Virus record (IMG/VR): IMGVR_UViG_2756170199_000003
Location: 32,001 to 96,000 of that record
DNA length: 64,000 bases
Reading direction: 5' to 3' (one strand)
DNA from: a virus
Taxonomy: Duplodnaviria > Caudoviricetes
The notes under the pieces were generated by a model. It worked only from the letters and a program-made list of their open reading frames with translations. It did no database searches and was not told the DNA's origin. The stretch's first letter is position 1. Every line of letters begins with the position of its first letter. The position numbers and the translations under genes are program-made. Positions 1 to 64,000 of the stretch are shown in pieces.

Positions 1-361
1 CCTGCGCGGAGGATCCAATGCTCGCCTGCACAGAAGGAGAAAGTGCAGAAAAGGCACTGTTGATCGTGCCCCCGCCCGTCACGGCCTGGACGAGTGTGTT
101 CGAGGCGGTGAGCAGGCGGGCGATGGTGTTCTGCGGGTTCATGAGGAGCTGCCCGTTGGCAACCCCTTGCACGAGTGGCAATACCTTCGCAGCCGCGGCG
201 CCCGCACGCAGCATGCCGATCAGGTTGACGTTGTACTTCGCGGCGAGGCTCTGAATCGAATTGACGATCCCGCCCGCCGTGCCGCTATAGACATCGACGG
301 TGGCGAGACTGTCTGCCGGGCCGGTGAGAAAGCCCGGAGCGGCAAGTGTCCCGGATGACAT
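1..361 (-). CDS. Partial ORF running off the window start; putative virion structural protein (MSSGTLAAPGFLTGPADSLATVDVY...)
   Basis: Translated by hand because it is absent from the ORF track. ATG at 361 is preceded by AAGGAG and there is no stop down to position 1. The F-TGP-D-LA-VDVY start resembles phiKZ-like virion proteins (from memory). Confidence 0.6.
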   Translation of the reverse strand, partial: MSSGTLAAPGFLTGPADSLATVDVYSGTAGGIVNSIQSLAAKYNVNLIGMLRAGAAAAKVLPLVQGVANGQLLMNPQNTIARLLTASNTLVQAVTGGGTINSAFSALSPSVQASIGSSAQ

Positions 362-364
362 GCC

Positions 365-928
365 CTACTCCTTGCAGTGTTCGTGAACACGCGCCGGCAG
401 AAAAGCGACGACCGGCGCCGGCGACCAGGTCCGGCCTTCCTTGAGGCAGCAGCGGATTTCCTCCATACCTGCGCACAGCCATCGCGAGATGCGCCCGTGG
501 ATCTGGATCTGCTCCGGCCCGTACAGATAGTAGTACGTGAACGGGAGCGTCGAGCTCATCATCGCCTCGCGGATATCGCTGTTCTGGACGATGCGGTGAT
601 AGTTGGCCTCGTTGATGATCTGGCTGAAGTTCTCCCGCCAGATCATCTTCTTTCCTTTCGCGTACGATCTTGCGCCGTTGCCGCAGAGCGTGCGAAGCGC
701 GTCATCGGGCGTCTCGCATTTGATGTAATGCCAGAAGCCTTCCATCGACCGGAAAGGGCCGTAGACCGGATGCACGAATGGCGTGACGCTGTAATGCGCC
801 AGCTTTCTGCCGAGTTCAGTCTGAGCCGCCGTCGAGATGTTGATGTGGGTGATGCCGTCCTCGCTGGGGCTCATCCCGGTTTCGCTGGCGTTCACAGCCG
901 CGAAAAGGTCCTGAATTGTCATAGTCAT
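365..928 (-). CDS. Conserved jumbo-phage protein, NADAR/YbiA-like fold suspected
   Basis: The motif HINISTAAQTELGRKL...PF-HPVYGPFRSMEGFWHYIK is typical of a large-phage family. The ATG at 928 overlaps the upstream stop (ATGA). Confidence 0.6.
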   Translation of the reverse strand: MTMTIQDLFAAVNASETGMSPSEDGITHINISTAAQTELGRKLAHYSVTPFVHPVYGPFRSMEGFWHYIKCETPDDALRTLCGNGARSYAKGKKMIWRENFSQIINEANYHRIVQNSDIREAMMSSTLPFTYYYLYGPEQIQIHGRISRWLCAGMEEIRCCLKEGRTWSPAPVVAFLPARVHEHCKE

Positions 929-1689
929 GATGCACCCTTCAGATTCTCTGGAGTCTCTGCGCATGGTCGCCGCGAGCGCGCCGTACCACCCGAAGGCATC
1001 TTGCCGTCCCGTTCATCGCGCACGTCCTCAGCGCTCTCCCGTGTCTGCTCCGCCGGTTCCGGAGCGCGCCCGAATTCGACCGTCGTGCCGTGTATCGAGG
1101 TGCGGCCGCTGAAATAGCGGCACTTCACCGAGAACTCCGCTTTATTGACCTGCAGAAACTGCAGGCCCTTCAGAAATACCTTGAAGGTCATCCCCTTGCC
1201 CCGGCGGGCAACGTAGCCACCAAGGAGTTCATTGAACCGCTCGAGCCCGACATCAAGATCGACCAGAATCTGGCGGTAGAAGTCGGCGAGAATATCGTTG
1301 GGATCCGCTACATCAGCGCGTGACAGATCGATCCTTGTCTTGTGGAGCGAAGTAGCGCCGGTGTCGTAATAACACTTGACGTAGAAGTCGATCTCCACGA
1401 CCTTCAGAAAGCGCATCCCCTTGAGATAGACGCTGAAGGTCATGCCGGGACGTTTGAGCTCCTTGGTGAGGTTGCCGCGCGCGACCGTGAGGTCCTTTGT
1501 ATTCTGGGCAATGCCATTTGCGGGATCCCTCACGTAATCACTCAGAAAATCGCTGAACCGTCCCGGGCCAACATCGAGTTCGATGAGCTGCTTGCGATAG
1601 AGGTTGGCGAGCACGCCGTTCGGTCCGGCAGTGCGCCGGACTGCGTTGTCGCCAGATCTGGGGATATGACCGAACTGTTGAATAGCCAT
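925..1689 (-). CDS. Hypothetical phage protein with an internal two-domain duplication
   Basis: Start chosen at MAIQQFG (AGGAC upstream). Two similar halves: LY/FYR..L..LDVG..RF...MTF.V.LKG..FL.V. Confidence 0.65.
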   Translation of the reverse strand: MAIQQFGHIPRSGDNAVRRTAGPNGVLANLYRKQLIELDVGPGRFSDFLSDYVRDPANGIAQNTKDLTVARGNLTKELKRPGMTFSVYLKGMRFLKVVEIDFYVKCYYDTGATSLHKTRIDLSRADVADPNDILADFYRQILVDLDVGLERFNELLGGYVARRGKGMTFKVFLKGLQFLQVNKAEFSVKCRYFSGRTSIHGTTVEFGRAPEPAEQTRESAEDVRDERDGKMPSGGTARSRRPCAETPENLKGAS

Positions 1690-1793
1690 GTCCTGTCCTT
1701 GTAAAGTGCCTGTGGGATTGCCTGTGAAGCTGCGTGTTAAAAAGCCTGTGTACAAAGCGTGCTATGGTCAGTCATTGATCGACAGGGCCACGC

Positions 1794-2336
1794 TTACCGC
1801 CCGATCTGGTGACTCATGTCGATCAGCACGATCATGAGTCGCCTCAGGTTGACGAATATCCGCGTAAGCATGCGCAAGTTGTATTGATGGACGCCGGTTT
1901 CCGCGCCATCGCTTTCACGCATGAGGGTGCATAACATCAGCACCTCGCTTCTGAAGCGGGCGAGGTGCTCGGGCACATTGATGTAAAACCCTTCTTTCGA
2001 TTCGAAGAAGCGGTCGAGCGTCGTCGCGCTGCCCTCAAGCAGTGCCCATTGCGTTGAGAGCGGTACCCCGCTTGCGAGCCTTGAATTGATGGTCCGCAGT
2101 TCAGTGCAGTACTGCACGATCGTTCCGTAGAAGGGCTGGATGCCAAAACCAAACGAATCGGACAGACGGAAGTTCTGAAACCTGGCCGGCTCCAGACACT
2201 CGGTTAGCGCCTGAAGCGTTGCGCGCCCGGCTTGGTGCGCCGACAGCGCGCGCTCCTGCCTGATGAGTCTTGTCATGCGCCGTCCTGCGCGCTTGTCGCG
2301 ACACCAGTGCCTGAGTTGAATTCGCCACGACTGCAT
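1794..2336 (-). CDS. Hypothetical protein
   Basis: Co-oriented ORF within the minus-strand run; start uncertain (2336 or 2276). Confidence 0.5.
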   Translation of the reverse strand: MQSWRIQLRHWCRDKRAGRRMTRLIRQERALSAHQAGRATLQALTECLEPARFQNFRLSDSFGFGIQPFYGTIVQYCTELRTINSRLASGVPLSTQWALLEGSATTLDRFFESKEGFYINVPEHLARFRSEVLMLCTLMRESDGAETGVHQYNLRMLTRIFVNLRRLMIVLIDMSHQIGR

Positions 2337-2387
2337 GACAGACCTCGTGCGACGGCATGACGGCGCGCAACCGTCCATTAGTATGAT

Positions 2388-6010: not shown

Positions 6011-7528
6011 TCAGGCGTTCACGGCGAGCGCCTGCATATCGCGTGCGTGATACTGATCGATGCATGTCTGGTAGTCAGACTTGATGGTCGTGTGGTCCGC
6101 TTCGAGCCAGTACGGCTCGTAATGCTTCGGATCGTCGACGGGCAACGTCATGCGAAGCAGATCCATGGTCGACAGATAGGGCAGCTCCCGCGCCTCGCCA
6201 CTTTCGTGCGTCCACCATCCCCGCGTGGCGAGCAGCGCATGCCAGTCGTAGCCCTGCGCCTTCACGTTCTCGTAAAGTGCTTTAGGAGTCAGGCGAAATT
6301 TCTCCGGCTGGGCGTGCCACAGATAACTCATCTGGCACATCTCGGAAGTGATGGTGAGCGCGCGCCGCAAAAGCGGGTCAGCGTCGATCTTCGCGCGCAC
6401 GGTGGTGCGCTGCAGCTTCGTCTCCGGATACAGCGCAAGTGCGTAGCTTGTATTGCTGCCTTCGAGCCCATATCGTTCGTTCTCGCGGATATGGTGAAAC
6501 TCTGTCAGCGAGGGCAGCACGCCGTCGGCCTGCGACACGATCAGCGTGACCGGCATGCCGGAAGGTCCAGCCTTGCCGCGCAGGTTGCGGATCTGTACAA
6601 CGTTCAGGTCTGTATCGTGAGCGAGATCATCGTTGCTGTCGCGCGGATACTCGGGCCCCTTGGTGCCCTGGTTGAAAAGCGGGGCCGCGTTGAACGCATG
6701 CCAGCAGTTGTGCGTGAGGAACGTGAACTTCGCGGGCACGCCCTTGATCTTGTCGCCATTCCTCAGGTACCGCAACGCCGCGGCGGCGGAATTCATACCT
6801 GGCGGGCCGCCCTGCAGGTCGATCACCTTGCCGATATGGGCGGTCATCAGAAGATAGTCGTACACCGAGGTATGGATGCGGGGCACTTCCATGAGAATGC
6901 GGTTCTTCACGCGTCCCTGCTGCATGTCAATGGTATTGCCCTTCGCTTCACCCAGTTCGATGTCGTCCTGCATGTCGATGATGTTGCTCGTCTCGAACTC
7001 GCTGAACGAATCGATTTCGGTGAACGTTGGGATCAGCATCTGGAACGCTCCCGAGCGCTCCCGGTTCCAGTATGGCGTGTTGACGATGATGTCGCGGCGC
7101 TTGCCCTTTGCCTCAAGCTCGTCCTTGTGAACGCGGTACCATTCGTCGCCCACGTAGACCGTCTTGTCGGTAATGATCCAGCGACGATTGCGCAGGATAT
7201 CCTCGTGGTGAAAATCCCCTATGTTGCCGGCGACCTTCGTCTGGTGCTCTTCGTGGATATTGGTTTCCGTATCGTAGGTCTTCGCTGTGGAGTGCATCAT
7301 GCGCGCCATGGCTGTGAGCATCATGAAGCGCTCGATGGTCGACTTGAAGTTGTTGCCGATACCCACGATCCCCGTGATAAACCCGAGTCCTCCGTTGAGG
7401 ATGGATTCGCCCCGACGCCCCTGGATATAGTGCCCGGTCGGAATGTCCAGACAGGCGCCAAGGTTGATCATCAGCTTGACGTTGGGTGCCGGAGTCATCC
7501 TGGAGCGAAGATCAATGTCTTGAGCCAT
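6011..7528 (-). CDS. uvsX: UvsX/RecA-like ATPase (phiKZ gp152-like)
   Basis: INLGACLDIPTG...ILNGGLGFITGIVGIGNNFKST Walker A region, YDTE, EIDSFS Walker B, and KAGPSG near the C-terminus. Confidence 0.85.
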   Translation of the reverse strand: MAQDIDLRSRMTPAPNVKLMINLGACLDIPTGHYIQGRRGESILNGGLGFITGIVGIGNNFKSTIERFMMLTAMARMMHSTAKTYDTETNIHEEHQTKVAGNIGDFHHEDILRNRRWIITDKTVYVGDEWYRVHKDELEAKGKRRDIIVNTPYWNRERSGAFQMLIPTFTEIDSFSEFETSNIIDMQDDIELGEAKGNTIDMQQGRVKNRILMEVPRIHTSVYDYLLMTAHIGKVIDLQGGPPGMNSAAAALRYLRNGDKIKGVPAKFTFLTHNCWHAFNAAPLFNQGTKGPEYPRDSNDDLAHDTDLNVVQIRNLRGKAGPSGMPVTLIVSQADGVLPSLTEFHHIRENERYGLEGSNTSYALALYPETKLQRTTVRAKIDADPLLRRALTITSEMCQMSYLWHAQPEKFRLTPKALYENVKAQGYDWHALLATRGWWTHESGEARELPYLSTMDLLRMTLPVDDPKHYEPYWLEADHTTIKSDYQTCIDQYHARDMQALAVNA

Positions 7529-8694: not shown

Positions 8695-9378
8695 ATGCGG
8701 CTCATTTCTCCTGGTAGTACGGCAAGACTTGCCTCGAAAGCCGGCGTAGTTATCCTCGTCGCCGCAGCCACTACGGCCTCGCCCGCCTGGGCTCATCACC
8801 GCCCGCACAGTGCGCATCGTGAACCAGCGCGCAAGCGCGTTGCGCTGCACGCACGTCCGCAGCCCAAGCCGCGCTTTGTGCACGCCCCCGGAGAGGAGCC
8901 AACGCCTCTCGTTGTACAGGACACCGGTTCAACTGTAGAGACCGCCACTGAGCCGCAGTCTGAACTGGCTGGCGAGTCCACCGCAGCGCTCGAGCGGGTG
9001 CAGGAGAAAGCCATGAGCCTCGTCGGCGTACGGTATCGCCTGGGCGGCAGCTCTCCATCGAGCGGCTTCGATTGCAGTGGATTTGTGCAATACGTGATGC
9101 GCCATGCGGCCGGGCTGCGGCTTGGCCGTACAGCCGAGAGTCAGGCGACAGAAGGACAGCAGGTCGAGCGTAGTGATCTGAAACTTGGCGATCTTGTTTT
9201 CTTTCATACCTACGGACGGCGAATCTCCCATGTGGGCCTGTATCTCGGTCACGGCGAGTTCGTGCACGCGCCGTCTTCCGGCGGCCATGTGCGCGTGGAA
9301 AAGCTGGACGATCCGTACTGGCAGGTTCACTACGTCAAGGCAGAGCGTCTGAGCGATGCCCAAGTGACACAGGACTAG
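8695..9378 (+). CDS. NlpC/P60 (C40) cell-wall peptidase with signal peptide
   Basis: YRLGGSSPSSGFDCSGFVQYV, GDLVFF, SHVGLY, FVHAPS; hydrophobic N-terminus ending AWA. Confidence 0.92.
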   Translation: MRLISPGSTARLASKAGVVILVAAATTASPAWAHHRPHSAHREPARKRVALHARPQPKPRFVHAPGEEPTPLVVQDTGSTVETATEPQSELAGESTAALERVQEKAMSLVGVRYRLGGSSPSSGFDCSGFVQYVMRHAAGLRLGRTAESQATEGQQVERSDLKLGDLVFFHTYGRRISHVGLYLGHGEFVHAPSSGGHVRVEKLDDPYWQVHYVKAERLSDAQVTQD

Positions 9379-9896: not shown

Positions 9897-11555
9897 TCAA
9901 GGTATCACCCTCAGGTTCGAGTACGTGCCGGCGCTGATGCAGATATCGTCTCCCGCCTGAACCACCGTCGCATACCGGAAAGCCCGCTCCGATTCGGGCC
10001 ACGTGACGAGGGTGATCTTCGGGCTGGCTTTCTCCAGTCGCTTGAGCGAATTGCGGTTGAGCAGATCGATACCGAGCGTCAGCGTCACGGGAATCGTCCC
10101 TGTAACAGGCGCTGCCCCGTTCTCGCCGCCTACGGCGTAGTTCGCCATAACGTTCAACGCGGCAAAGCCCACGCCGAATTCTGGCCGCAGCTCTGTCACC
10201 GTAGCGGCCTCCCCTTTCCTGCCGGCGGGCTTTTCCTTCTTCTCGTAGAGGTTCTCCGTGAGATCGGTCGTCGTGATGGCCGCATCGCGCGTCTCGTACT
10301 GACGCAGGCGTTCGATGAGCCCCGACACGGCCGTAATGGCGCGCATCGCAATGCGCGGCGGCCGGCACTCGCGCGAGAGCGGTTTGTGCGTGTGCCCCCC
10401 GGGCTCCTCGTCCAGGCAGTTCAGGTCAAGCCGCCATGCGCTCGGCCGCAGCAACGCCGCGGTACCCCACGCGACAAGTTCACGGTGCGTCGTCGCGCTG
10501 TAAAGCTGATCCAGTCGCACAATGACGATAGCGTCGAATCCCCCAGCCAGTTCCGTCGTGTAGTTGCGCACGAGCTCAATCGCCGTGTCCGGCATCGCCA
10601 GTCTCACCACCGTATGCGCACCATCGCTCATGCGCTTGCCGAGCAGTTCGTCTTCCTTGCCGTGATCCCCGAGATAGTAGACGCCCGGCTGCTGGTACTG
10701 TGCCACGGTATTGAAGTAGAGACACCGGTTCGCGAGCATCGGATGACGGCCGGTATCGTACTTCCAGTACCCCTGCGCGGCGCTTGAACTGACCTCGTTC
10801 CGGGAGATGCCCTGTGCCGAGAGCGCGACGCCGATGGTGGCCAGCTTGTCGGCGAGCACGTTGCCCAGATGATGGCTGTGACTTTTGACCCACGCAAATT
10901 TAACGTCCACGGCGTGCTCGACCAGACGCGCACGCGCGGCCGCCAGTTCCTTCCAGAGCACGACATTGGGCACACTCTCGCCGCCGCGCTTGACCCAGCC
11001 ATTCCTTTCCCAGGTGTCGATCCAGCTCTCCATACCACGACGTACGTATTCGCTGTCGACCCTGACCATGACGCGCTCGACCTCGAAGTCCTGCGCGTAT
11101 TGCAGGGCCCTGACGGCAGCCACCAGTTCTCCGATGTTGTTGGTCAGCTTCTTCTCGCCCGTCGAGAGCATGGACCCATAACCATCAACGTAGTGAACGG
11201 GTGTGACTTCCGCGAGGCCGGCACGTTTTGCTGCATCGTATTTTTCGACATAGCCCTTGCGTGTCAGCAGCCAGCGACCGTTGCCGCTGCCTTTGGCCGG
11301 TTTCGCGTCGGTATAAAGATAGCCGTGAAAGCCCCAGCCAGTCGGGCCGGGATTGGGATTGCTCCCGGCGTCCGTATACAGCACGAGACCCATCGCAACT
11401 TTCGCTATGCCTTCGTCGCGCCCCTCCCCTGTGGCCCTTCCTGCCGGCGCGGCCTCGGGCGTGTCAACCGCGCTTGCATTCTTCTCCGCTTCGTCCGCTG
11501 CTTCTTCCGCTTCGAGCGTCGACACCTCTGCGGCATCCTCGTCCTCTGGAACCAT
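9897..11555 (-). CDS. Ribonuclease H with long C-terminal extension (phiKZ gp155-like)
   Basis: LYTDAGSNPNPGPTGWG, TNNIGELVA, VDSEYV, NVVLWKEL, WVKSHSHHLGNVLADKLA. Confidence 0.9.
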   Translation of the reverse strand: MVPEDEDAAEVSTLEAEEAADEAEKNASAVDTPEAAPAGRATGEGRDEGIAKVAMGLVLYTDAGSNPNPGPTGWGFHGYLYTDAKPAKGSGNGRWLLTRKGYVEKYDAAKRAGLAEVTPVHYVDGYGSMLSTGEKKLTNNIGELVAAVRALQYAQDFEVERVMVRVDSEYVRRGMESWIDTWERNGWVKRGGESVPNVVLWKELAAARARLVEHAVDVKFAWVKSHSHHLGNVLADKLATIGVALSAQGISRNEVSSSAAQGYWKYDTGRHPMLANRCLYFNTVAQYQQPGVYYLGDHGKEDELLGKRMSDGAHTVVRLAMPDTAIELVRNYTTELAGGFDAIVIVRLDQLYSATTHRELVAWGTAALLRPSAWRLDLNCLDEEPGGHTHKPLSRECRPPRIAMRAITAVSGLIERLRQYETRDAAITTTDLTENLYEKKEKPAGRKGEAATVTELRPEFGVGFAALNVMANYAVGGENGAAPVTGTIPVTLTLGIDLLNRNSLKRLEKASPKITLVTWPESERAFRYATVVQAGDDICISAGTYSNLRVIP

Positions 11556-11606
11556 CGCAGCTCCCTATCCGGTCATGACTACACCATGCCCGGCCCCGGT
11601 AACGTT

Positions 11607-14081: not shown

Positions 14082-14092
14082 TCGGGTGCGCG

Positions 14093-15412: not shown

Positions 15413-15443
15413 TGGACAGGCTGCGGCTGCGGCTGCGGAATCG

Positions 15444-16748: not shown

Positions 16749-16905
16749 AGCAACATCCCCGAAGATTTCTTGTGATCCGGTCTTGTCTGCCTGGTCCGGT
16801 TCGCAGGAGGTCCTTGTTTAAACGAGTCCACAGTTTGCCAGAAGATGACTCAGCCAGTCACAAACGATCCACCCCGCATATGGGTGTGCGCGTTTGTCGC
16901 GAGCG

Positions 16906-45098: not shown

Positions 45099-45108
45099 CA
45101 TATAAATT
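45099..45108 (-). promoter_or_regulatory. Candidate late promoter AATTTATATG
   Basis: TATG core about 64 nt upstream of the sheath start. Confidence 0.45.
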
Positions 45109-45177
45109 CGTCCGCTTCGCAATCCTCAATAACCTTCGACCACGTCATCACGAACTTTCAGGACGAGGCGGCGGAGA

Positions 45178-53126: not shown

Positions 53127-55634
53127 ATGGCGGACTTGCTGAACGCATTGCAATCGATACCTGGCCGGCAGGCGTACTTTCTCGAAGTGCCCGGTACGGC
53201 AGCTGCCGCGGCGTTGTCCGTGGTGTCGTTCGATGCGACCGAAACGATGGGCTCGCCCATTGAGGTGAGCATCGAACTCACCCATCCCCTGCAGCTCGCA
53301 CGCGCGGACTTCCTGAACCGCGACGCCACATTCTCGATCGTGCCCGACGACGGTGTGCCGAAGAAGTTTTCGGGATACATCGAGCGCTTCTCGACGATCA
53401 AGACCACGAAGGACTTCACCCGGTACCGTCTGGTCCTGAAGTCACATTTCGGGCGCCTGCAGGCGGTTACCAACACGCAGGTTTTCCAGCACCTCACCAC
53501 CCCGCAGATCATCCGGCAGATCCTGAGCTCACACGGTATCAGGGATCACCAGATGTCCTTCCGGCTGCGCGGCAAATACCCCAAGCATCTGTGGCGTTTC
53601 CAGCACCAGATGACAGATTTTTCCTATGTGCACATGCTCATGGAAAAGGCTGGCATTTACTGCTTCGTCGTCGAGACCGAATACGGTGACCAGATTGTTT
53701 TTGGTGACGACATCGACCACTACATCTACGACCCCCGTCTCATCGTCCCCTATCGCGAAGCAGCCGGCCTTGAAGCCGGTGGTAGTGAGGCGATAACGTC
53801 GATCAGAACACATAGCGTGACGGTGCCGCAGTCCATCGTCGTCGCTGACTACAACCCGGATCAGGCGTGGGAGCGTTTTCGAGATGAGGCCAACCTCGCC
53901 CCGCAGGACGAAACCACCTACGGCCAGACCTACATCTACGGCACCAACCACCTCGATCAGGACGGCGCCAAGTGGGAAGCACAGCTGCGACATGAGGCGG
54001 CCCTCGCCCGCCAGGTGATCTACGAGGGTGAGAGCAATGTGCTAGCGCTTCAGTGTGCTCGTGTACTCGAAACAGACATCGCGCTACCCGACGCCCCGAA
54101 GGGCCAGGTGGTCATCGAAGTCAAGCACAGTGGCGCGCGCGACAAGGGCTATTCGAACACGTACAGGGCGATTCCTGCGGACCGGCGCTTCCGGCTCCAG
54201 CTCGAGCCTTCGAATTGGGCAAAAATCCCGGGGACGCTTTCGGCACGAATTTGCAGTCCCGATAAATATTCCTTTGGCTACCTCAATTCCGTTGGCTACT
54301 ACGTCGTCAGACTCGATGCCGATTTTGGTACCTGGTCGAAGGGTGGCGAGAGCGTGCCGTTGCGTCTCGCAAAACCCTTCGCCGGCAAACTGCAGACCGG
54401 CATGCACTTCGTCGCGCTGGATAACGACGAGGCAAAGATCTCCTTCAGGGATGGGGACCCGGACAAGCCAGAAATCAGCGGCTTCCACCACCATAGCCAG
54501 GCCCGCGATCTGGTGACGAATGACCGCCGCTGGCTGTCCCGCAACATGATCCGTACGCAGAAGAACAACAAGCTGCGTATGGAGGACTGGAACGGACAGG
54601 AAGGCATCAAGCTTAGCACGGACCACTCGGGCAAGTCACAGCTCAATCTCGGCTACCTCGTCAATGGCAAGCTTGAATACCGCGGCGAGGGGCATGAGCT
54701 CCGCACATCGGGATGGGGGGTACTGCGCGCCGGCAAGGGCGTGATGGTGACCAGCTATGACCGCCCAGGCGCCACTGGCGCACAGCGCGACATGCAGGAG
54801 ACGATGGCGCAACTGGACAGCGCGCTGGAGCTCGCCAAAGCGCTCGCGGCATCCGCCACCAGCGCCAAGGCGGAACCTGCCGACACCAACGCGCAGCAGC
54901 AGGTGAAGGATGATCTGGATAACCTGAAGAAGCCAGGCTTGCTGATGAGCACGCCAGCCTCCGCTGCATTGGTAGCGGCCGGTGGCATCCAGTTCTCGGC
55001 GGAAGACAACATCACTGGCGTAGCCGGCAGGAATGCTGACTTCAGTGTCATGAAACGCTTTACCGCCGCGGTCGGCGAGAAGATTTCGCTGTTCGCGCAG
55101 AAGTTCGGCATCAAGATCTTCGCAGCCAAAGGCCCCGTTGATTTCCAGGCACAGGGCGGGCCGATGTCGCTTACCGCGGCCAAGGACGTCAACGTCGGCA
55201 GCGTCAATGGCAAGGTCAATCTCGCGGCGGCCAAGGAAATCATCCTCGAATGCGGAGGTGCGTTCGTCCAGATCAAGGACGGCAGCATCACGCTCGGCGG
55301 TCCGGGCGATCTGTTCTTCAAAACGATCACCGTACAGAAGAAAAGCAAAGCGTCGCAAACGCCAGCTTTCCCTGTCCTGCCCGATGGCAATATCTACGAG
55401 CAGGACTTCAAACTCGTCAATCACGCGGACGGCACCTTACTCCGGAACGCAGCATACAAGATCACGTCCGAAAGCGGCACCCAGTTCGCAGGCGTCGCTT
55501 CGGACAACGCAATCACACGTCTTGCTGTGACCAGTCCCGCCGAGAAACTCACGGTCAAACTGAATTCCGAAGATGCCGACACCTATCACCAGCATCTCCG
55601 CGATGCGTGGGGCAACCCCGCATCCAACGATTGA
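53127..55634 (+). CDS. vgrG: Type VI secretion spike VgrG (DUF2345-type) with C-terminal transthyretin-like extension
   Basis: DFSYVHMLMEKAGIY, RLAKPFAG..GMHF, F.DGDPDKP, NKLRMED..GQEGIKLST..GKSQLNLG.LV, GHELRT..WG.LRAGKG, GIKIFAAKGPV; tail YEQDFKLVN..G.....YKI. Confidence 0.95.
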   Translation: MADLLNALQSIPGRQAYFLEVPGTAAAAALSVVSFDATETMGSPIEVSIELTHPLQLARADFLNRDATFSIVPDDGVPKKFSGYIERFSTIKTTKDFTRYRLVLKSHFGRLQAVTNTQVFQHLTTPQIIRQILSSHGIRDHQMSFRLRGKYPKHLWRFQHQMTDFSYVHMLMEKAGIYCFVVETEYGDQIVFGDDIDHYIYDPRLIVPYREAAGLEAGGSEAITSIRTHSVTVPQSIVVADYNPDQAWERFRDEANLAPQDETTYGQTYIYGTNHLDQDGAKWEAQLRHEAALARQVIYEGESNVLALQCARVLETDIALPDAPKGQVVIEVKHSGARDKGYSNTYRAIPADRRFRLQLEPSNWAKIPGTLSARICSPDKYSFGYLNSVGYYVVRLDADFGTWSKGGESVPLRLAKPFAGKLQTGMHFVALDNDEAKISFRDGDPDKPEISGFHHHSQARDLVTNDRRWLSRNMIRTQKNNKLRMEDWNGQEGIKLSTDHSGKSQLNLGYLVNGKLEYRGEGHELRTSGWGVLRAGKGVMVTSYDRPGATGAQRDMQETMAQLDSALELAKALAASATSAKAEPADTNAQQQVKDDLDNLKKPGLLMSTPASAALVAAGGIQFSAEDNITGVAGRNADFSVMKRFTAAVGEKISLFAQKFGIKIFAAKGPVDFQAQGGPMSLTAAKDVNVGSVNGKVNLAAAKEIILECGGAFVQIKDGSITLGGPGDLFFKTITVQKKSKASQTPAFPVLPDGNIYEQDFKLVNHADGTLLRNAAYKITSESGTQFAGVASDNAITRLAVTSPAEKLTVKLNSEDADTYHQHLRDAWGNPASND

Positions 55635-55679
55635 CCGCGTATTTCTGAAAGCATTCCAGTAACCAAAGGTTCCGAGAAT

Positions 55680-56651
55680 ATGGGCAAACGCATTCCACAA
55701 GAAGCAGAAGATCCAGCCTACGAAAGTGACCAAACACGGCCTCAGGCAACCACGCCTGTCGCCAATCTTGCGGAGCCGATCTCCAAGGGATACCTCTGCA
55801 AAAAGTGCTGCGCCGCACTTAACAAACCGCGTCGAAACCGGTTGAACCACCCGATGTACCAGCGCACCGTGACTCGCTCGATCTGGGAAGACAACGTCGA
55901 AAAGCGACAGTATTTTCGCTATAAGGGCGAGGTCGGCTATGACATGACGAAAAAGCCACCGGCTCCGATCATGTCGGCCAAGAAAAAGGAAGAAAACCGC
56001 CCCAGCGAGTTTCCGTTAGCTGGAATCTGGCGCATAAAGCGCGAACTCCAAGCGGTGGTCGAAACTGCTGGAGAGGCCGCGGGAGACCTGATAACACGAA
56101 ACGAGCTCGAAGCGCTTGGCGGTTCGGTATTGCGCATCCCAGACGTCATTGTCCTTCATTGTGATAGTGATCTTCTCAAACAACTCGAATCCCAAACGGC
56201 CGATATCAAACGCTTCATTCCAGAACAGAAGAATATTGAGCGGATCGTTGAGGTTAAGTTCTTCGACGATACCCTCTCGGAATATCAAGGTCGCGCGTAT
56301 AGTCAGATTGCAGGGCCAGCCGAATTCAACCTCCTTGAACCGACGAACCCAGATCCAGATTGCGGTTGCGGATGTCAGAAGGACGAAAAAAAACAGAAGA
56401 CAGAGCAAAAGCAAACCTCTCGATCGTCTGCTTCTCAGCGTCCGCCAATTCCGTTCATTCCGCCTGTTACACCGCCGCGCGGCGGGAAAGATGAGGACCG
56501 TCTTATCGTTGACCCAGTCGCTTCGAGTTCATACGACGGCGAGCAATCATTGAGCGATGTATTACCCCGCACACCAACGAGCAACTTGTCAGGCTCCTCA
56601 GTGATACTGCTCGACGTGCTGCTTATACTCGCTGCGGCCGCAGCCCTTTAA
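55680..56651 (+). CDS. T6SS nuclease effector, VRR-Nuc/TseV-like (PD-(D/E)xK)
   Basis: YKGEVGYDM...PPAPIMS, RIPDVIV...IVEVKF..D.....Q..AY..IAG, CGC; between vgrG and the immunity gene; visibly lower GC. Confidence 0.8.
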   Translation: MGKRIPQEAEDPAYESDQTRPQATTPVANLAEPISKGYLCKKCCAALNKPRRNRLNHPMYQRTVTRSIWEDNVEKRQYFRYKGEVGYDMTKKPPAPIMSAKKKEENRPSEFPLAGIWRIKRELQAVVETAGEAAGDLITRNELEALGGSVLRIPDVIVLHCDSDLLKQLESQTADIKRFIPEQKNIERIVEVKFFDDTLSEYQGRAYSQIAGPAEFNLLEPTNPDPDCGCGCQKDEKKQKTEQKQTSRSSASQRPPIPFIPPVTPPRGGKDEDRLIVDPVASSSYDGEQSLSDVLPRTPTSNLSGSSVILLDVLLILAAAAAL

Positions 56652-56668
56652 CTGATCCAGACTCCGAA

Positions 56669-57688
56669 ATGACATCTGACGAACTCGACGACTACGTTTA
56701 CGACTGCGACCGCACAGCCCCTGACAGCCCTGAAGGAGCTGACTTCCGATACGTGGTGAAACTCGTACTTCGCGCCACGTTATTTTTTCGCGCAGGACAC
56801 ACGCAGGAAATTCGCCAGGGACTGAAGGCCTGCTTCGACGAGTATTTTCTGGCATTCGGCAAGAATCTGCATTGGGGATGGGAACCCCAACCATCCGGAA
56901 AGCCGACGCCTCGAATCTTCGATCAAAATCTTATCGATGCTACTCGTAGTGCCTTCGACAACACGAAAGAAGGTAGCAACATTGAACTCGCTTTCATGAG
57001 CGGATTTAACCAATACTACGTTGGCGATTATGGAATCAAGTGTCTGACCATGCCAAACTGGGAAGACTCAATGGGTTACGATTCCTATTTCAGCTTCTGG
57101 TTGCCTTGTGATACTTATCATGAAGGCCGATGGGATGGTGGCAATTTCCCTGCCCATGAATTCCTGCTTGCGTGCTGCAAACGTCTTAAAGCTTCACAAG
57201 GCTACGCTGGATTCGCTCTTGCGCTGCCGCACGAATATGCCAAATGGGAACCCTACGAACTGAAGTTGGCCCAAAAATACTACGGACTGGAGATCGACAA
57301 GGCAGCGGCAACATCACTCATGATCGACGAGTGGCGCGGAGTCAAGGACGTCAACTGGTACACCATCCTTGGCGAACCCTATGTTGAAAAATTAGGCGGC
57401 AACCACGCCATCCGCGCAAAGCTTGCAGCCCCCAACTTTCAGCTTTACGACTTTGGCGCAGGGATTACCATCCGGGCAGGCGCTGAACCTGAAATGGCTC
57501 CAGTAAGCAATGGTCTGCCATCTGCATATGTAGCAGTCAATGACGTCATTCGACCAATCAGGACGACACAAATCCGATCGATGGGTCTTGGCTCAAACGC
57601 AGGCGAATTGCGCTTCAATATCCGACTGACTGACCTGTGGATGAGACGGTTTGATGCGCCGGGGATTTGGCCGCCGGCACATCCATAA
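56669..57688 (+). CDS. Cognate T6SS immunity protein (DUF3396/TsiV-like)
   Basis: ATLFF..GH.....R...CFDEY, GYAGF, E..LA..YYGLEID, GVKDVNWYTILG...VEKLGG, P..Y..VN....P.R, W.RRFD. Confidence 0.82.
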   Translation: MTSDELDDYVYDCDRTAPDSPEGADFRYVVKLVLRATLFFRAGHTQEIRQGLKACFDEYFLAFGKNLHWGWEPQPSGKPTPRIFDQNLIDATRSAFDNTKEGSNIELAFMSGFNQYYVGDYGIKCLTMPNWEDSMGYDSYFSFWLPCDTYHEGRWDGGNFPAHEFLLACCKRLKASQGYAGFALALPHEYAKWEPYELKLAQKYYGLEIDKAAATSLMIDEWRGVKDVNWYTILGEPYVEKLGGNHAIRAKLAAPNFQLYDFGAGITIRAGAEPEMAPVSNGLPSAYVAVNDVIRPIRTTQIRSMGLGSNAGELRFNIRLTDLWMRRFDAPGIWPPAHP

Positions 57689-57786
57689 CACGGCCAATCG
57701 TGTTCGATTAACAGCGGCAGGCCCCCGTCCCGTATATCGCAACGGTTTGCGACGACGGTGGCCTGACCGCATCGAATGAGGTTTGC

Positions 57787-58419
57787 GTGACAAGTAATGA
57801 ACGTACGGCTCACCGCCGTGTACTGCCATTTTTCTGCTCACCGCCGGCATGGGTTCTGATTCGCGTCGATGTGCCGGGACTCTCCATTGTGAGAGAACGC
57901 ACCGAGCATGGTGGAGCGGTGCTGTGCTTCCTGTCGCTACTCGACGCGATGATCGAGGTCGTCCATGCCGCACGCGTTGGCAGGGAGTTGCGTATCCTTC
58001 GCGCATCAGATGTCGATTTCAGTCTGTTCCGGGACCTCGACGGACAAGGACTGCTCGCGAGCCTGCATAGTGCATGGCTCGCATCGGGTCCGAAGATCCT
58101 TGCCCGACCATCTGGCGTCTTGGCTAGGTTCACAACGGACCTACATGAATGGGCCGGCGATCCGGTTTTCTTCGAAGTTCAGTCGGACACGCTTGGCTTG
58201 TTCAACGACACCTATGAACTGGCAGGTCTTTTCGCCTGGCGCGAGACCAATCAAATCGTACAGCGATGGGACGAGGCACGCCTTCGCGACGCCGCGAAAA
58301 GAGCGCTCAATGCGGTTGAGGTGACAGGCGGTCAAGCGGAGGACTGCAACGGCTTGGCCCTGTTCAATCCTGAGTCAATGGAATGGCACTTCGTGCCGCC
58401 CAGAGAGCAGGAATCGTGA
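57787..58419 (+). CDS. Hypothetical bacterial-type protein
   Basis: GAGG RBS with GTG start; 210 aa ending ALFNPESMEWHFVP. Confidence 0.55.
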   Translation: MTSNERTAHRRVLPFFCSPPAWVLIRVDVPGLSIVRERTEHGGAVLCFLSLLDAMIEVVHAARVGRELRILRASDVDFSLFRDLDGQGLLASLHSAWLASGPKILARPSGVLARFTTDLHEWAGDPVFFEVQSDTLGLFNDTYELAGLFAWRETNQIVQRWDEARLRDAAKRALNAVEVTGGQAEDCNGLALFNPESMEWHFVPPREQES

Positions 58420-58557
58420 GCAGCAACACCTTTGTCCAGCCTGGTCGTGGATTCGTCGGCCGGTCCATCAATCGCGTGGTCGCGCTGCACACTGCTTCAG
58501 AACGTGCTCCGGTTGATCTTTGCCCGGCTGCCTATCATGCAGCCGGATAGCGTCGTC

Positions 58558-59787
58558 TCATGTCCCTGAGTAGTGCCGCATGGTCATCGTACGGATTACG
58601 ATGTAGAGAAGGATCGCTGTGCGTACCGATGCAATCACGCTGTCGTTCCGGTTTCCCGTGGCCTTCTTCACGCACCACTCGGCTTTATCCCTGAGCGAAA
58701 AGAGCGCAGGATCGATGCTGCGCGACGAAGTATAGACCCCACGCAGCCTGGCAAGGAGCGTCGGCAGATCCACGTGGTTGCGCACCATGGTGCGCTCTTC
58801 AGCAAGATAGTCGAAGCTGTGAATGAGCGTTTCGTCGAGCAGATCGCCGATGCGCTTCGCAGCTGAGTGCTGGTAGCTGTCCGAAATCCATTCGAGTGTC
58901 TGCCGGAAGAGGCGTGGCGGTGTCGTGTACATCAGCTTGCAGATCAGCTCGAACAGCTCTTCCTTGATGAACGAGTGCCGGTCGGTGACGATCGAGTGCA
59001 GGTACCGCGTGTACGCAATCAGGTTGCGGTTACGATCCTTGAGCACCACGTTACCATCGTAGTCGACGAGCGACGAGCTCGACTGGATGCGCATACCCTG
59101 ATGATGGACCTGCAGGAACACGTCGTAAATGTTCTTGAGCATGTCGCGGATGCGGCTTTGCGTATCGTTGAGCAGGTAGATCACCTCGAGGTCGTTGTCC
59201 ATCCGGGAGATGGTCTTGAAATGCAGGCCCTGGGGGGAGATGAGGTCGCGCGTACGCTGCTCCAGCACGGCGTTCCACGTGCCAAACTGCTTGATCGCGA
59301 ATTTACCGGACAGCAGCGCGTAGGTGGCCTCCGCTGTGGCCCGGTCGGCGGGATAGCGGAAGTGGCGAAAGAGGCGGGAGGTCAGAAACTTGTACTGGAG
59401 CACGAGCGCAACGTCCATCATGGTTGTCTGCTTCGCGGCGTCGTTGAGTTTCGGGCTCACGTAAAGCGCGTGCAGCAGCCATGCGCACGAGAGATTCATC
59501 GTGTCACTGGAGACCTTGAAGGTGGGATTGACGGTAGGTAGCGCGACGAGCTCCTGGGCAAGCACACCCTCTTCGACTTTCAGGATCTCCTCGAACCACC
59601 GGTCACGGTCGTCGTCGGTGAAGCGCACCACCTCCACGCCCGTGAGATTGCCGCCAAAGAACTTGATGTGATCGGGGTTCTTGAAAACAAAGGCGTGACG
59701 GTACTGGCTTACCCTGCGGGCGAATGCTGCATCCATCGCGAGGTCGTGGCAAGCCTCGAGGAACACGCCCTCGATGTTTTTCGCCAT
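58558..59787 (-). CDS. Conserved phiKZ-like virion structural protein (gp32-like)
   Basis: FFGGNLTGV...RF...D...WF, F.VSSD..NL, LQYKFLTS, A.ATY..LS.KF.IK..G.W, YTSSRS motifs. Confidence 0.7.
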   Translation of the reverse strand: MAKNIEGVFLEACHDLAMDAAFARRVSQYRHAFVFKNPDHIKFFGGNLTGVEVVRFTDDDRDRWFEEILKVEEGVLAQELVALPTVNPTFKVSSDTMNLSCAWLLHALYVSPKLNDAAKQTTMMDVALVLQYKFLTSRLFRHFRYPADRATAEATYALLSGKFAIKQFGTWNAVLEQRTRDLISPQGLHFKTISRMDNDLEVIYLLNDTQSRIRDMLKNIYDVFLQVHHQGMRIQSSSSLVDYDGNVVLKDRNRNLIAYTRYLHSIVTDRHSFIKEELFELICKLMYTTPPRLFRQTLEWISDSYQHSAAKRIGDLLDETLIHSFDYLAEERTMVRNHVDLPTLLARLRGVYTSSRSIDPALFSLRDKAEWCVKKATGNRNDSVIASVRTAILLYIVIRTMTMRHYSGT

Positions 59788-59850
59788 GGCCAATTCCTGA
59801 AATCCGATGAAAAGCCGCTGAGGAGCCGCCGGCAGCGTCCGGGTGCGGCT

Positions 59851-60555
59851 CTATGCGCGCCGGCGCGCGACCCAGTCCTTTGCAAATGCCTCAAGCGAGG
59901 GAAACACCCTCGATCCGTAGGCATGCACCAGTGCCTCGAGCGCCTGTGCGAGTTCGACCACGCGCGGCTCGGGATTGCTGCTGTCGCTGCCGTTGACTGA
60001 GGGTTGGGTGGCATCCATGACGACCACGTAGTTATCCGGGCCACTACCATGCTGACCGAGTTCGGCCAGATCCTGACTCACTTCGACAATGTGCTCGGGC
60101 TTGACGTCGGTCGCCGAAACGCCATAGACGGTAGTCGCACCAGCGCCTGGCGTCGTGTCGGCGCTGGCGAGTTCCACGTTGTTGATGAGTTGGGCAAGCG
60201 CGAGGGCGTCATTAGCCTGCGATTCGAGCGCCTGCGATTCGAGCGCCTGCGACTGGCCGCCCGGTCGACCGCCGGAATCGAGCAGGGCTTTTGACGTTTC
60301 CGGTGCGCCATCCTGCGCGCTGCCATGCCCATCCCGGCTGCCCGCGGCAGCGTCAGACTCCGTGGCACCCGGTGAGGCGACCGCAGTTGCCTCATCCGTG
60401 GCTTCGCCCGTCGAAGACTCGGGACGCGCATAGACCTCGTTGAGCGCCTGCGAAAAGACTTCCGAGAGCGGCCCCTTGATCTCAATGAGTTCCTTGCTGT
60501 CATCCCCGGCAGAGTCCAGTTGCCCTTCGAGCGCTGCCCTGAGCAATGAAGCCAT
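59851..60555 (-). CDS. Putative head/ejection protein with multiple A/S-x-E protease motifs
   Basis: GGAGG RBS; AALE, QALESQALESQ, QALE, SLE; KGPLSEVFSQALNEVYA. Confidence 0.65.
   Translation of the reverse strand: MASLLRAALEGQLDSAGDDSKELIEIKGPLSEVFSQALNEVYARPESSTGEATDEATAVASPGATESDAAAGSRDGHGSAQDGAPETSKALLDSGGRPGGQSQALESQALESQANDALALAQLINNVELASADTTPGAGATTVYGVSATDVKPEHIVEVSQDLAELGQHGSGPDNYVVVMDATQPSVNGSDSSNPEPRVVELAQALEALVHAYGSRVFPSLEAFAKDWVARRRA
60215..60252. repeat. 15-bp tandem repeat (2.5 copies) encoding SQALE
   Basis: GCCTGCGATTCGAGC twice plus GCCTGCGA. Confidence 0.85.
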
Positions 60556-61956: not shown

Positions 61957-62008
61957 CGATGCGGAGTCGATCAGATCTCCACAACATTTCTTTACGGAGG
62001 ACCACGAC

Positions 62009-62350
62009 ATGAACCATGCGATTCAGGAAATGTTTTCCAGTTGTGTGAAGTATTTCGACGCGCTCAGCTATCTGGCCGAACGCAATGCCTCGGTGAGTTT
62101 TGCACGGGTCAATCTGGGCGAGTACTCGGTCGTCCACCTGCGCTGCGGAAACGCCACCGTGATTTCGAGCGAGATCATTCGCGTCTTCGACCGGGAGGGT
62201 AACCCGGTGGATAAGGTCACGCTGCCCTACACGCAGCAACGTGCCTGGTACAAGCGACTCGTCGTCGAGGAAGGCTTTCCCGCTGCGAACCTGATTGAAC
62301 TTCTCGATGAACGCAGTCGCGATTATTTCTGGCGGGAGCGGCTGCAGTAG
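62009..62350 (+). CDS. Hypothetical protein
   Basis: GGAGG RBS, start MNHAIQ. Confidence 0.65.
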   Translation: MNHAIQEMFSSCVKYFDALSYLAERNASVSFARVNLGEYSVVHLRCGNATVISSEIIRVFDREGNPVDKVTLPYTQQRAWYKRLVVEEGFPAANLIELLDERSRDYFWRERLQ

Positions 62351-62467
62351 GTCAGGGAGTCGTCACACACAACAGCTACGGGATCATGGATGCTGGTTGG
62401 GCAGCATCCATGATCCCGTAGCTATTTTTCTTCGCAATCCGAACTCATACACAAGGACCAATACGCT

Positions 62468-62824
62468 ATGTTTGCCAAGATGCTGATGGGCGCTGCCAAG
62501 GAAAACCGCCACGTTGGAGTTCCCCGTTCCATAGTCGAGGGTGAACACATCGAATTCTCGTACGACCTTCATGGACGGCCTTTCATGAAGGTCTGGCGTT
62601 TCGGGAGCTGCGAGGAGCTCCCCGTGTTCGGCGACGTCTACCTCATGTCCGGAACCGGCGAGACCATCGATCGTTTCAGCCCGCCGCTGAATTTTGTTGG
62701 TCGCGGCGCCGACGGCTGGAAAGACCGCCCCGGCGATTCAAAATCGCCTCCCGACCACACACCGCCGCCGGCGAACCTCCCATCCGTTCCACGGTTGCTT
62801 ACAGGACTAACCCGTCATGTGTGA
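62468..62824 (+). CDS. Hypothetical protein
   Basis: AAGGA RBS; VYLMSGTGETIDRF motif; overlaps the next gene. Confidence 0.6.
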   Translation: MFAKMLMGAAKENRHVGVPRSIVEGEHIEFSYDLHGRPFMKVWRFGSCEELPVFGDVYLMSGTGETIDRFSPPLNFVGRGADGWKDRPGDSKSPPDHTPPPANLPSVPRLLTGLTRHV

Positions 62825-63311
62825 CTACCCGCGCAAGATCATCGTGCTGCGGCACGCCGAACCTACCATCGAGCCATGGAGCCAGCGTCTGTCATCGATC
62901 GGCCGCGAGCGTGCCGCATCGCTCGCCACGTATATTCCCCGAAATTTTGGCAAGCCAGACGTTATCTTCGCACTCGCCCCTACAACCGGCCTGCACCCGC
63001 TGCTCACGGTCCTACCATTGTGGCAGGACCTTGATGACGTTCCGCTGGACGTCTCCTGCGACAGCGACGAGATCCGTGTGCTGGCGCGCTATATCGTCAG
63101 GCAGGGCGAGCCGATTCCCGGCAGCCGCTTCGCCGGTCGCAATGTACTGATCTGCTGGGATCCGAAGGGGCTGCCGGCGCTCATGATGGCGCTCGGTGCA
63201 TCGACACAAACTTTCCGCGATCCGTGGCCTGAGAGCGATTTCAACAGCATTTACGTCCTCACTCGCGACAACGAGCGCGTGATCAACACGCGTTACGAAA
63301 TGATATTCTGA
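62817..63311 (+). CDS. Histidine phosphatase (SixA/PGM)-like protein, possibly degenerate
   Basis: IIVLRHAE, LS..G.ERA..L, PDVIF, VLICW; the second catalytic His appears replaced (CWD). Confidence 0.65.
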   Translation: MCDYPRKIIVLRHAEPTIEPWSQRLSSIGRERAASLATYIPRNFGKPDVIFALAPTTGLHPLLTVLPLWQDLDDVPLDVSCDSDEIRVLARYIVRQGEPIPGSRFAGRNVLICWDPKGLPALMMALGASTQTFRDPWPESDFNSIYVLTRDNERVINTRYEMIF

Positions 63312-63378
63312 GAAGTCCGTTCCTGCGAGTGGTGTCAACCACGGAAACGGTATAACCCTGTTTCGGATGGAGTAAATA

Positions 63379-63678
63379 ATGACAGACAACGAAGAATTTT
63401 ACGATGCGGAGATAGGGCCTGCCATTCTCGAGATCATGAACAAGTGCAAGGCGCGGGGAATGTCTTTTGTCGCTCTTGTCGAATACGCTCCCGGCAAGCG
63501 AGAACGCTCGACTTTTCTACCGTCCGATGCGGGAATCGAGATGATTATGGCTGAGCTGTGCGCGAGAAACGGGCCGTATCTCGACGCCTACGTTGCGGAC
63601 GTCAATGCCTATGCGAAGAAGAACCATATTGACACGACTGACAGCTTCATTCTGCAGCGCATGCGTGGCCTCACCTAG
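63379..63678 (+). CDS. Small hypothetical protein
   Basis: GGAG RBS; E.FYD.EI.P....I...CK..GM.FVA.VEY. Confidence 0.65.
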   Translation: MTDNEEFYDAEIGPAILEIMNKCKARGMSFVALVEYAPGKRERSTFLPSDAGIEMIMAELCARNGPYLDAYVADVNAYAKKNHIDTTDSFILQRMRGLT

Positions 63679-63846
63679 CAGTGGGGTAGCGATGATACTC
63701 GCAGTTGCGGCGAGATAGCATGTTTTCTACGATACCGGCGTTGCCTCTCGTCGCCCGTTACCTGCTTAAGTTCCGCCTCCAGCACGTGATCGTGCCGCCG
63801 TAGGGCGGCACGCCATTCCGACCTTCTTTTGTTCGAGGACCGCTCA

Positions 63847-64000
63847 ATGTTTAGGCAGGCCACGCTCATTCAGGACGTGACCCTCTACCGCGCGAGTCTG
63901 GCGCCCACGCTCACCGGACTCGTGATCCAGTATGCCCAGGCGGGCTGCGTCGAAGAGGAGGCTCTGGAATGGATCGTCGCCCATCAGATCGAAGAGTGCT
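63847..64000 (+). CDS. Partial ORF running off the window end (MFRQATLIQD...)
   Basis: GAGGA RBS; reading frame open to the window end (translated by hand). Confidence 0.45.
   Translation, partial: MFRQATLIQDVTLYRASLAPTLTGLVIQYAQAGCVEEEALEWIVAHQIEEC

Follow-up and report, generated by a model that had tools for sequence, protein, structure and literature searches.

We analysed a 64,000-nucleotide stretch of phage DNA (the window), bases 32001-96000 of the IMG/VR record IMGVR_UViG_2756170199_000003 (here G000), and found that the phage genome to which it belongs carries the complete basic replicon of Burkholderiaceae megaplasmids, a parA-parB-rep cassette, on the same contig as the genes of a nucleus-forming jumbo phage. 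Together with the state of its relatives in bacterial assemblies, this suggests that the G000 lineage is probably a jumbo phage-plasmid, resident in its host as a giant plasmid. G000 is 138,880 bp long with 59.7% GC and no terminal repeat, and is classed as a 'provirus' in IMG/VR with a CheckV completeness of 52%; contig coordinates below are window coordinates plus 32000. An initial annotation, made from the letters of the window, had proposed long residence as a prophage, a phage-plasmid or a domesticated element. The phage-plasmid option gained from the parA-parB-rep genes and from relatives on separate contigs of ~283-286 kb, and the integrated prophage lost ground with the lack of a conserved integrase.

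A megaplasmid replicon in the phage genome

Relatives were sought by scanning species-representative bacterial genomes for the terminase large subunit (TerL). This yielded a 284,264-bp contig of Paraburkholderia adhaesiva ZD32-2 (G006:C5, hereafter C5) and a 286,074-bp contig of Paraburkholderia sp. BCC1886 (G008:C11, hereafter C11), as well as Caballeronia arationis LMG 29324 (143,740 bp), P. unamae CATux-332 (a TerL fragment) and a Sulfuriferula metagenome-assembled genome. Two further members are G001, cut out of a 282,688-bp contig of GCA_014200875.1, and G004, a 278,988-bp metagenome genome.

The cassette lies at contig 127246-130977, 31 kb past the right edge of the window and on the same contig as TerL and chimallin. 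ParAB and Rep, which the initial annotation had named as genes to look for on the full replicon, are thus present as a complete set, syntenic in five genomes:

contig 127246-128493, minus strand: Rep, 415 aa, 50-58% identical to 'Replication protein O' of 117 Burkholderiaceae plasmids
contig 128744-129763, minus strand: ParB, with ParB_N and HTH_ParB domains
contig 129736-130977, minus strand: ParA, 413 aa, AAA_31 (E 1.7e-38), with an N-terminal extension of ~130 aa

ParA was 67% identical to ParA of Caballeronia/Burkholderia megaplasmids and chromids, and the identity of Rep to 'Replication protein O' spanned >90% of its length. The gene for 'Replication protein O' is the first gene of one plasmid record and lies ~1.3 kb from parA at the start of another. 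Pfam gave no match for Rep, for a 743-aa gene described below or for several small genes. Among the jumbo phages of the GenBank phage set, none encodes a ParA of this type; the best phage matches were N15, PY54 and phiKO2, at ~30% identity.

The five genomes (G000, G001, C5, G004 and C11) carry the cassette at the same locus, a variable slot after the helicase gene and before the next core block, and in C5, G004 and C11 phage core genes flank it on both sides. ParA of G000 is 98% identical to that of G001 and of C5 and 90% identical to that of G004, the TerL of which is just 63% identical; C11 holds a divergent allele at the same locus (ParA 46%, Rep 51%). On C5, the ParA of the cassette is the sole ParA match. 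Fifteen other relatives, among them seven near-complete genomes and the isolated phage FLC9, lack the cassette, and the ParA-negative genomes G005 and G091 have other DNA in the slot. In a quick TerL tree, cassette carriers fell in three places within one well-supported clade of 16 rows. Comparison of G000 with C5 gave dN/dS values of 0.03 for ParA, 0.09 for ParB and 0.27 for Rep. The ParA dS of 0.26 is far under the ~1 of the core genes, and exchange of the cassette therefore postdates the divergence of the phages.

Several features adjoin the cassette. An inverted TGTTTCACG pair, 77 bp apart, lies upstream of parA (contig 131,135-131,220), is conserved in G000, G001, C5 and G004, and is a candidate partition/operator site; three copies of CAGTGAAAT, another candidate, are found in the parB-rep intergenic region downstream of parB (contig 128,494-128,743). 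Beside parA on the G001 parent contig (GCA_014200875.1 contig 9) stand a PIN-domain gene with a small antitoxin-like partner upstream and a TIR_2-domain gene, which are putative addiction- or defence-type plasmid cargo.

The distribution of the cassette bears on what we regard as the main rival explanation, a virulent jumbo phage in a persistent or carrier state. Its parA-parB-rep genes, and its genes for a type VI secretion system (T6SS), would then be morons that either assist lytic growth, such as by placing or copying the phage DNA, or have no function. Such a phage would fit the lack of the cassette in the close relatives G005 and G091 and in the isolate FLC9, and the failure to find a repressor or switch; its permuted virion DNA would be expected to assemble as a circle, and isolate assemblies often contain Seoulvirus and Goslarvirus, which are not temperate. 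However, the persistent phages of the literature, which were screened, have neither ParA nor Rep, whereas in this clade purifying selection acts on a full replicon, and one allele has replaced another at a fixed locus. Moreover, all isolate-derived members with a readable cassette locus carry the cassette, compared to one of the three complete metagenome-derived members of the 16-row TerL clade (G004, but not G005 or G091). The 68-kb T6SS and metabolic island of C5, described below, and the mobile elements on the same circle are also hard to square with an obligately lytic genome. We consider a carrier state unlikely and favour residence as a phage-plasmid.

A chimallivirus core under purifying selection

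Genes were called by PHROGs or Pfam matches and compared with C5, G004 and C11. The core genes discussed here are as follows (window coordinates unless marked):

6011-7528, minus strand: UvsX-like recombinase (phrog_97, E 1.3e-34; amino acid identity 86% to C5, 65% to G004 and C11)
9897-11555, minus strand: RNase H-like ribonuclease (phrog_3265, E 6e-105; phrog_531 RNase H)
16906-19314, minus strand: gp182-like virion protein (phrog_3181, E 2e-203)
19253-25999, minus strand: gp181-like giant tail/injection protein, 2248 aa (phrog_3201, E 4e-272)
26082-27716, plus strand: virion RNA polymerase beta-type subunit, piece 1 (phrog_2986, E 8e-191)
27744-32243, plus strand: virion RNA polymerase beta-type subunit, piece 2 (phrog_3148, E 0, full length)
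36692-37447, plus strand: Peptidase S80 prohead protease (PF20034, E 1.6e-74)
41883-42857, minus strand: tail tube (PF23806, E 4e-110)
42930-45122, minus strand: tail sheath (phrog_3242, E 3e-206)
45178-46122, plus strand: phiKZ gp28-like vertex-binding protein (PF25614, E 6e-70)
50644-52905, plus strand: TerL (phrog_2)
58558-59793, minus strand: conserved core gene closing the slot behind terL (phrog_2921, E 1e-132)
contig 104493-106565, plus strand, beyond the window on the same contig: chimallin (phrog_4795 'nuclear shell protein', E 1.7e-49)

Each phiKZ-like gene that the initial annotation had described as intact (split virion RNA polymerase, S80 protease, gp181/182-like genes, sheath, tube, terL, UvsX and RNase H) was recovered by PHROGs or Pfam. 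The gp181-like protein contains a lytic transglycosylase domain (phrog_4067; Pfam SLT, residues 1790-1879). The big core open reading frames (ORFs) align with their orthologues over their full length, and no frameshifts are evident because of this end-to-end agreement, as had been supposed from the window alone. Chimallin and a non-virion RNA polymerase had been singled out as informative genes; the former lies on the same contig, as do further RNA polymerase subunits beyond the window (phrog_2987 and phrog_3295). DNA polymerase, SbcCD, helicase and tail-fibre paralogues are also encoded on the G000 contig beyond the window. Four neighbouring paralogues of tail-fibre type (634, 469, 504 and 772 aa) lie before the window at contig 12,770-20,052 and have phrog_2163 and phrog_8147 domains in common.

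Two other marker genes named at the outset, major capsid and PhuZ, were found in relatives and not on the G000 record. The major capsid gene, absent from this 52% record, is present in G004 and C5 and is 43.5% identical to the RP12 major head protein. C5, C11, G004 and G005 have a Tubulin-family (PhuZ-like) match; the C5 protein had no tblastn match anywhere in the G000 record. The C5 gene lies at 143,632-144,717, in a position syntenic to window ~62,000-64,000. PhuZ is common in Chimalliviridae without being universal. Its loss there is on record (PMC12768965).

The syntenic relatives are 279-286 kb long, compared to the 138,880 bp of G000 at 52% estimated completeness, and 108 core genes are common to C5, G004, C11, G005 and G091. 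When the window was compared with C5, G004 and C11, almost all of its genes proved to be conserved core, the exceptions lying at 8695-9378, 15444-16748, 35079-36074, 38092-41772 and 53127-58419. The nearest isolated phages by TerL are Burkholderia phage FLC9 (56% identity) and Ralstonia RP12/RP31/FLC1-1B (52%). Judged by these genes, G000 is a chimallivirus of Burkholderiales. The hosts are soil bacteria, Paraburkholderia/Caballeronia-type Burkholderiaceae, in keeping with the Burkholderiales-like host first suggested. The nearest phages infect Burkholderiales, and relatives occur in Paraburkholderia/Caballeronia assemblies.

Purifying selection on the virion genes is strong. With dS at ~1, the comparison of G000 with C5 gave dN/dS values of 0.015 for the tube, 0.075 for the sheath, 0.072 for TerL, ~0.1 for the RNA polymerases and 0.34 for chimallin. 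Across the tube, the sheath, TerL, the virion RNA polymerase and others, the values spanned 0.015-0.16.

The core genes lie in GC-rich DNA, as noted from the start, with the window at ~60% GC overall and 0.53-0.66 per 2 kb. The phage block has 59.0% GC, samples of host chromosome 63-65% and a host plasmid sample 60%. The further step taken in the initial annotation, that a host-like GC content points to residence, does not hold. FLC9, a phage isolated on B. glumae, is GC-rich too (55.97%; PMC12388082), and GC content was set aside as a mark of residence.

A sequence element, TATATCAC, occurs eight times in G000, always on the plus strand, against 1.7 copies expected (window 37531, 51832 and 61949 and five more). 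It is found seven times in the phage block of C5 and not at all in the bacterial flank of C5, and is possibly a phage promoter element.

Replicon state and the provirus boundary

One LysR-type gene is divided between the two ends of C5, its N-terminal part matching BenM residues 5-80 and its C-terminal part residues 105-279. C5 is a closed circle because its ends hold these two halves in frame. C11 has a 125-bp terminal overlap and G004 a 127-bp end overlap. The ZD32-2 assembly consists of about five contigs, of 3.38, 1.91, ~0.9, 0.49 and 0.28 Mb.

C5 combines a 217-kb phage block with 68 kb of bacterial-type DNA that contains a T6SS cluster and metabolic genes. The cluster, at C5 17,400-49,600, encodes TssJ, G, F, A, M, a Tle3 phospholipase effector, VgrG, TssC, TssK, a TagL-like OmpA protein and ClpV, and is adjoined by ~17 kb of transporter and oxidoreductase genes. 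On the G001 parent contig, TssA, TssC, TssB, TssL, Hcp and ClpV lie directly upstream of a gene for 191 aa. Pooled from these two contigs, the set comprises TssA, B, C, F, G, J, K, L, M, Hcp, VgrG and ClpV.

This arrangement explains where the provirus boundaries of the records fall. G001 and G000 both open with an equivalent 191-aa ORF at bases 1-576, and the left 'provirus' cut of G000 is therefore the T6SS/phage junction; the record starts at that junction and the flank of G000 itself lies past the record end. The right-hand cut is in an accessory island past parA. The phage block of G004 and of C11 has its two ends side by side. Metagenome scans with the left-junction genes gave nothing useful.

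A chromosomally integrated prophage, as the IMG/VR label implies, or a phage-bacterial assembly chimera would account for the provirus calls on G000, G001 and G003, for a tyrosine recombinase near the right end of G000 and for the bacterial genes that flank the phage block in C5 and in the G001 parent contig. We nevertheless consider both very improbable. The cuts were made in contigs the size of a phage genome, at the T6SS/phage junction and within the island downstream of parA; C5 closes on itself; its flanks are not collinear with related chromosomes; and there is no conserved integrase. A chimera would also have to produce the same T6SS-phage junction in two phages 15-20% apart in nucleotide sequence. 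Integrase genes, att sites and host flanks had been proposed as signs to look for, and neither a conserved integrase nor chromosomal flanks were found. G001, G004, G005 and C11 had no PF00589 match, and a search for an empty site for the C5 flanks among 81 Paraburkholderia genomes gave scattered gene-level matches and no collinear site; one of the 81 (G080) is unpublished, and no conclusion here depends on it.

The tyrosine recombinase of G000 (459 aa) belongs, with a 743-aa protein that has no family match, to a 4.4-kb insertion private to G000 (contig 133,200-137,600; window coordinates 101,200-105,600), located between genes that adjoin in C5. The insertion is probably a small mobile element. 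As the only PF00589 match of G000 lies in this insertion, which is absent from C5, the integrase was rejected as a mark of integration. C5 contains, inside its phage block at 57,700-60,130, three tandem tyrosine recombinase genes of the recombinase-in-trio type that are absent from G004. On the 75.5-kb contig of P. unamae CATux-332, only TerL residues 585-753 match (72%), possibly from a truncated or interrupted terL. A search of PLSDB plasmids with TerL returned a single match, at 34%, to NZ_CP134650.1 (Enterobacter ludwigii, 222,441 bp), and no Burkholderiaceae record; NZ_CP134650.1 is probably a persistent jumbo phage that was entered as a plasmid.

The bacterial DNA on C5 raises a further alternative, that of a domesticated or defective phage region: a Burkholderiaceae plasmid having rep-parAB, T6SS and metabolic genes of its own would have captured a jumbo phage, and infectious virions would no longer be made. 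The 68 kb of clearly bacterial genes on the C5 circle, the missing PhuZ match in G000 and the entry of mobile elements into the phage block are all consistent with it. A decayed region would not be expected to share 108 core genes with four complete relatives or to keep intact virion, packaging, RNA polymerase and chimallin genes at dN/dS of 0.015-0.34 with dS ~1. In addition, G004 and C11 have the cassette without a T6SS or metabolic island, and replicon size holds steady at 279-286 kb while ~65 kb of content differs, which fits a headful packaging limit. Domestication is thus quite unlikely in our view, and we retain the interpretation as a functional phage-plasmid.

A VgrG-TseV-TsiV island in a variable slot behind terL

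The largest accessory exception within the window lies between terL and the phrog_2921 core gene:

53127-55634, plus strand: T6SS-type VgrG spike (Phage_GPD 8e-54, T6SS_Vgr 1.5e-31, DUF2345 2e-41)
55680-56651, plus strand: TseV-like VRR-Nuc (PD-(D/E)xK) DNase effector, 323 aa (VRR_NUC 22.7 bits, cut-off 23.8)
56669-57688, plus strand: TsiV (DUF3396) immunity protein (PF11876, E 2.6e-44, 152 bits)

VgrG matched the 841-aa type VI secretion protein of PDB chain 6SJL over residues 4-803 (E 1e-115). The effector is a predicted VRR-Nuc DNase: its homologues carry PF08774, and the residues D155, E191 and K193 of its motif (IPD155 and E191-x-K193) are invariant in 10 homologues. TsiV matched P. aeruginosa PA0821 (PDB 7DRG, E 6e-34), and GC falls locally to 53% at its gene.

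In at least 25 relatives, the gap from terL to phrog_2921 is only 0.6-1.8 kb. The slot is filled in three members: G000, G001 and a 275,198-bp JGI metagenome contig. G001 has a VgrG that is 82% identical, followed by an unrelated pair of 450 and 175 aa, and the JGI contig has VgrG, a TseV that is 51% identical, and TsiV. We considered whether VgrG might be the phage's own baseplate spike and rejected this; VgrG is cargo and not a baseplate hub because the complete genomes of the relatives G004, G005 and G091 contain no homologue of it. The G000 protein had no jumbo phage match in the phage collection. It aligns over its full length only with the VgrG borne by C5 (38%) and in part with the host's other VgrGs, which would fit a role for the G000 VgrG in an element-borne T6SS.

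Orphan T6SS VgrG islands, such as that of Paraburkholderia sp. GAS38 in a non-phage neighbourhood, have the same three-gene order and domains. In contrast, the island of G000 lies directly behind terL of a jumbo phage, sister phages swap the cargo (the G001 pair; the JGI contig effector at only 51%), and the closest relatives have on the same replicon a T6SS apparatus that would match it. TsiV-like genes also occur in temperate Burkholderia phages, where PAAR-TseV-TsiV modules are present (PMC13366799).

Smaller accessory genes

The remaining accessory genes of the window include the following:

8695-9378, plus strand: NlpC/P60 peptidoglycan endopeptidase (PF00877, E 2.6e-33)
35079-36074, plus strand: lineage-specific OmpA-domain protein (PF00691, E 6e-17)
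36239-36408, minus strand: tRNA-Ser(GCT) and tRNA-Gly(TCC) (ARAGORN)
38827-39384, plus strand: marginal HTH (XRE-like) gene (HTH_31, 26.1 bits, under the 27-bit cut-off)

The NlpC/P60 gene is absent from G004 and C11, with a 63% copy at another locus of C5. The OmpA-domain gene, also absent from G004 and C11, has a 70% counterpart in C5. The tRNAs are 96% (Ser) and 97-99% (Gly) identical to chromosomal tRNAs of Paraburkholderia/Caballeronia. The HTH gene belongs to a small accessory cluster at 38092-41772 that also includes a DUF6884 gene; it has no counterpart in C5 or G004 and a 28% match at a different locus of C11. Bacterial cargo interleaved with the phage core, as the initial annotation described it, was thus borne out for VgrG-effector-immunity, NlpC/P60, OmpA and the host-like tRNAs, and not for the XRE gene, which is marginal, sub-threshold and not conserved. 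A 434-aa ORF at 15444-16748 on the minus strand has a good coding signal and no homologue in C5, G004 or C11, its sole family signal being a 20-bit 'lipoprotein' PHROG match.

A proposed resident and lytic cycle

We propose that, in the resident state, Rep would fire the plasmid origin and ParAB would segregate the ~280-kb circle as a low-copy plasmid prophage, with no chimallin shell made. On a switch, virion and non-virion RNA polymerases, chimallin, DNA polymerase and the structural genes would run a nucleus-forming lytic cycle, and headful packaging may account for the constant replicon size. The resident element would pay its way by its cargo: VgrG-TseV-TsiV would give a T6SS a DNase and shield the carrier cell, and in the two closest relatives the T6SS served by the VgrG cassette would be encoded on the same replicon. 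The NlpC/P60 gene, the OmpA-domain gene and the host-like tRNAs may be further accessory genes of this kind. A methyltransferase-like gene (phrog_5696) located before the window at contig 10,834-11,784 is, apart from rep-parAB, among the few genes present in all of the cassette bearers C5, G004 and C11 and not in G005 or G091; it might protect the DNA in the unshielded plasmid state.

Several points weigh against residence as a phage-plasmid. We identified no conserved repressor or lysis-lysogeny switch, the HTH gene of the window being sub-threshold and not conserved, and a repeat search for parS gave candidate motifs only, with no convincing array. A circularly permuted lytic phage also assembles as a circle. 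A phage that relies on a protein shell against host defences would have to survive unshielded as a plasmid. G000 itself is probably from a soil metagenome and is a 52% fragment, so that its replicon state is read from relatives; one soil-metagenome sequencing run was found, holding 0.49 of the sampled G000 words, and no RNA run was listed. Stable inheritance, low copy number and induction are likewise predictions. Finally, presence in an isolate assembly is by itself no proof of lysogeny because jumbo chimalliviruses without plasmid genes persist in isolates too (10.1101/2024.12.31.630880; PMC12768965).

Significance and comparison with known systems

Nucleus-forming phages of the phiKZ type are regarded as strictly lytic, which is part of why they are preferred in phage therapy and biocontrol. 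A working plasmid replicon, if confirmed, would mean that this family can be temperate, and would supply a genetic mechanism by which jumbo phages, puzzlingly, persist in 'pure' cultures. It also raises a question of defence, namely how a genome that hides in a shell survives host defences as naked plasmid DNA, and the virion could carry a T6SS horizontally. We see about even chances for the fullest form of the proposal. In that form, this would be the first temperate nucleus-forming jumbo phage, with an unshielded low-copy plasmid mode (rep-parAB) and a chimallin-shelled lytic mode, and its closest relatives, with a full T6SS and swappable VgrG-toxin-immunity genes, would constitute a 280-kb transmissible weapon platform for Paraburkholderia. 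Culturable strains with relatives are P. adhaesiva ZD32-2, Paraburkholderia sp. BCC1886 and the strain of GCA_014200875.1.

FLC9 and the Ralstonia phages RP12/RP31/FLC1-1B have the same core gene set and local synteny (TerL 52-56% identical, major capsid protein 44-55%) and were isolated as plaque-forming phages. FLC9 has no ParA, Rep not having been searched against phages. Its terL (17,495-19,765) is inverted relative to its neighbours, unlike the arrangement in this clade.

Chimalliviruses that persist in isolate assemblies were described in 2025; on screening, they proved to be without ParA and Rep (10.1101/2024.12.31.630880; PMC12768965). Seoulvirus, Goslarvirus and Bapsvirus have chimallin-encoding jumbo genomes on separate contigs from 'pure' isolate assemblies, as in this clade, but explicitly no ParA or replication proteins, whereas this clade has the full cassette and bacterial cargo. 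In the literature we found no description of a plasmid replicon or a T6SS in a nucleus-forming phage, and one study excludes a phage-plasmid lifestyle for its own set; plasmid-style residence is probably new for this phage family.

Phage-plasmids of the P1, N15, PY54, phiKO2 and SSU5 types similarly combine a tailed phage with partition and replication genes and exist as extrachromosomal prophages, a state that is probable for the G000 lineage. Those matched by ParA (N15, PY54, phiKO2 and POI1126) are 46-60 kb and not nucleus-forming. In contrast, the G000 lineage has a genome of ~280 kb with chimallin, its own multisubunit RNA polymerases and a Burkholderiaceae megaplasmid replicon.

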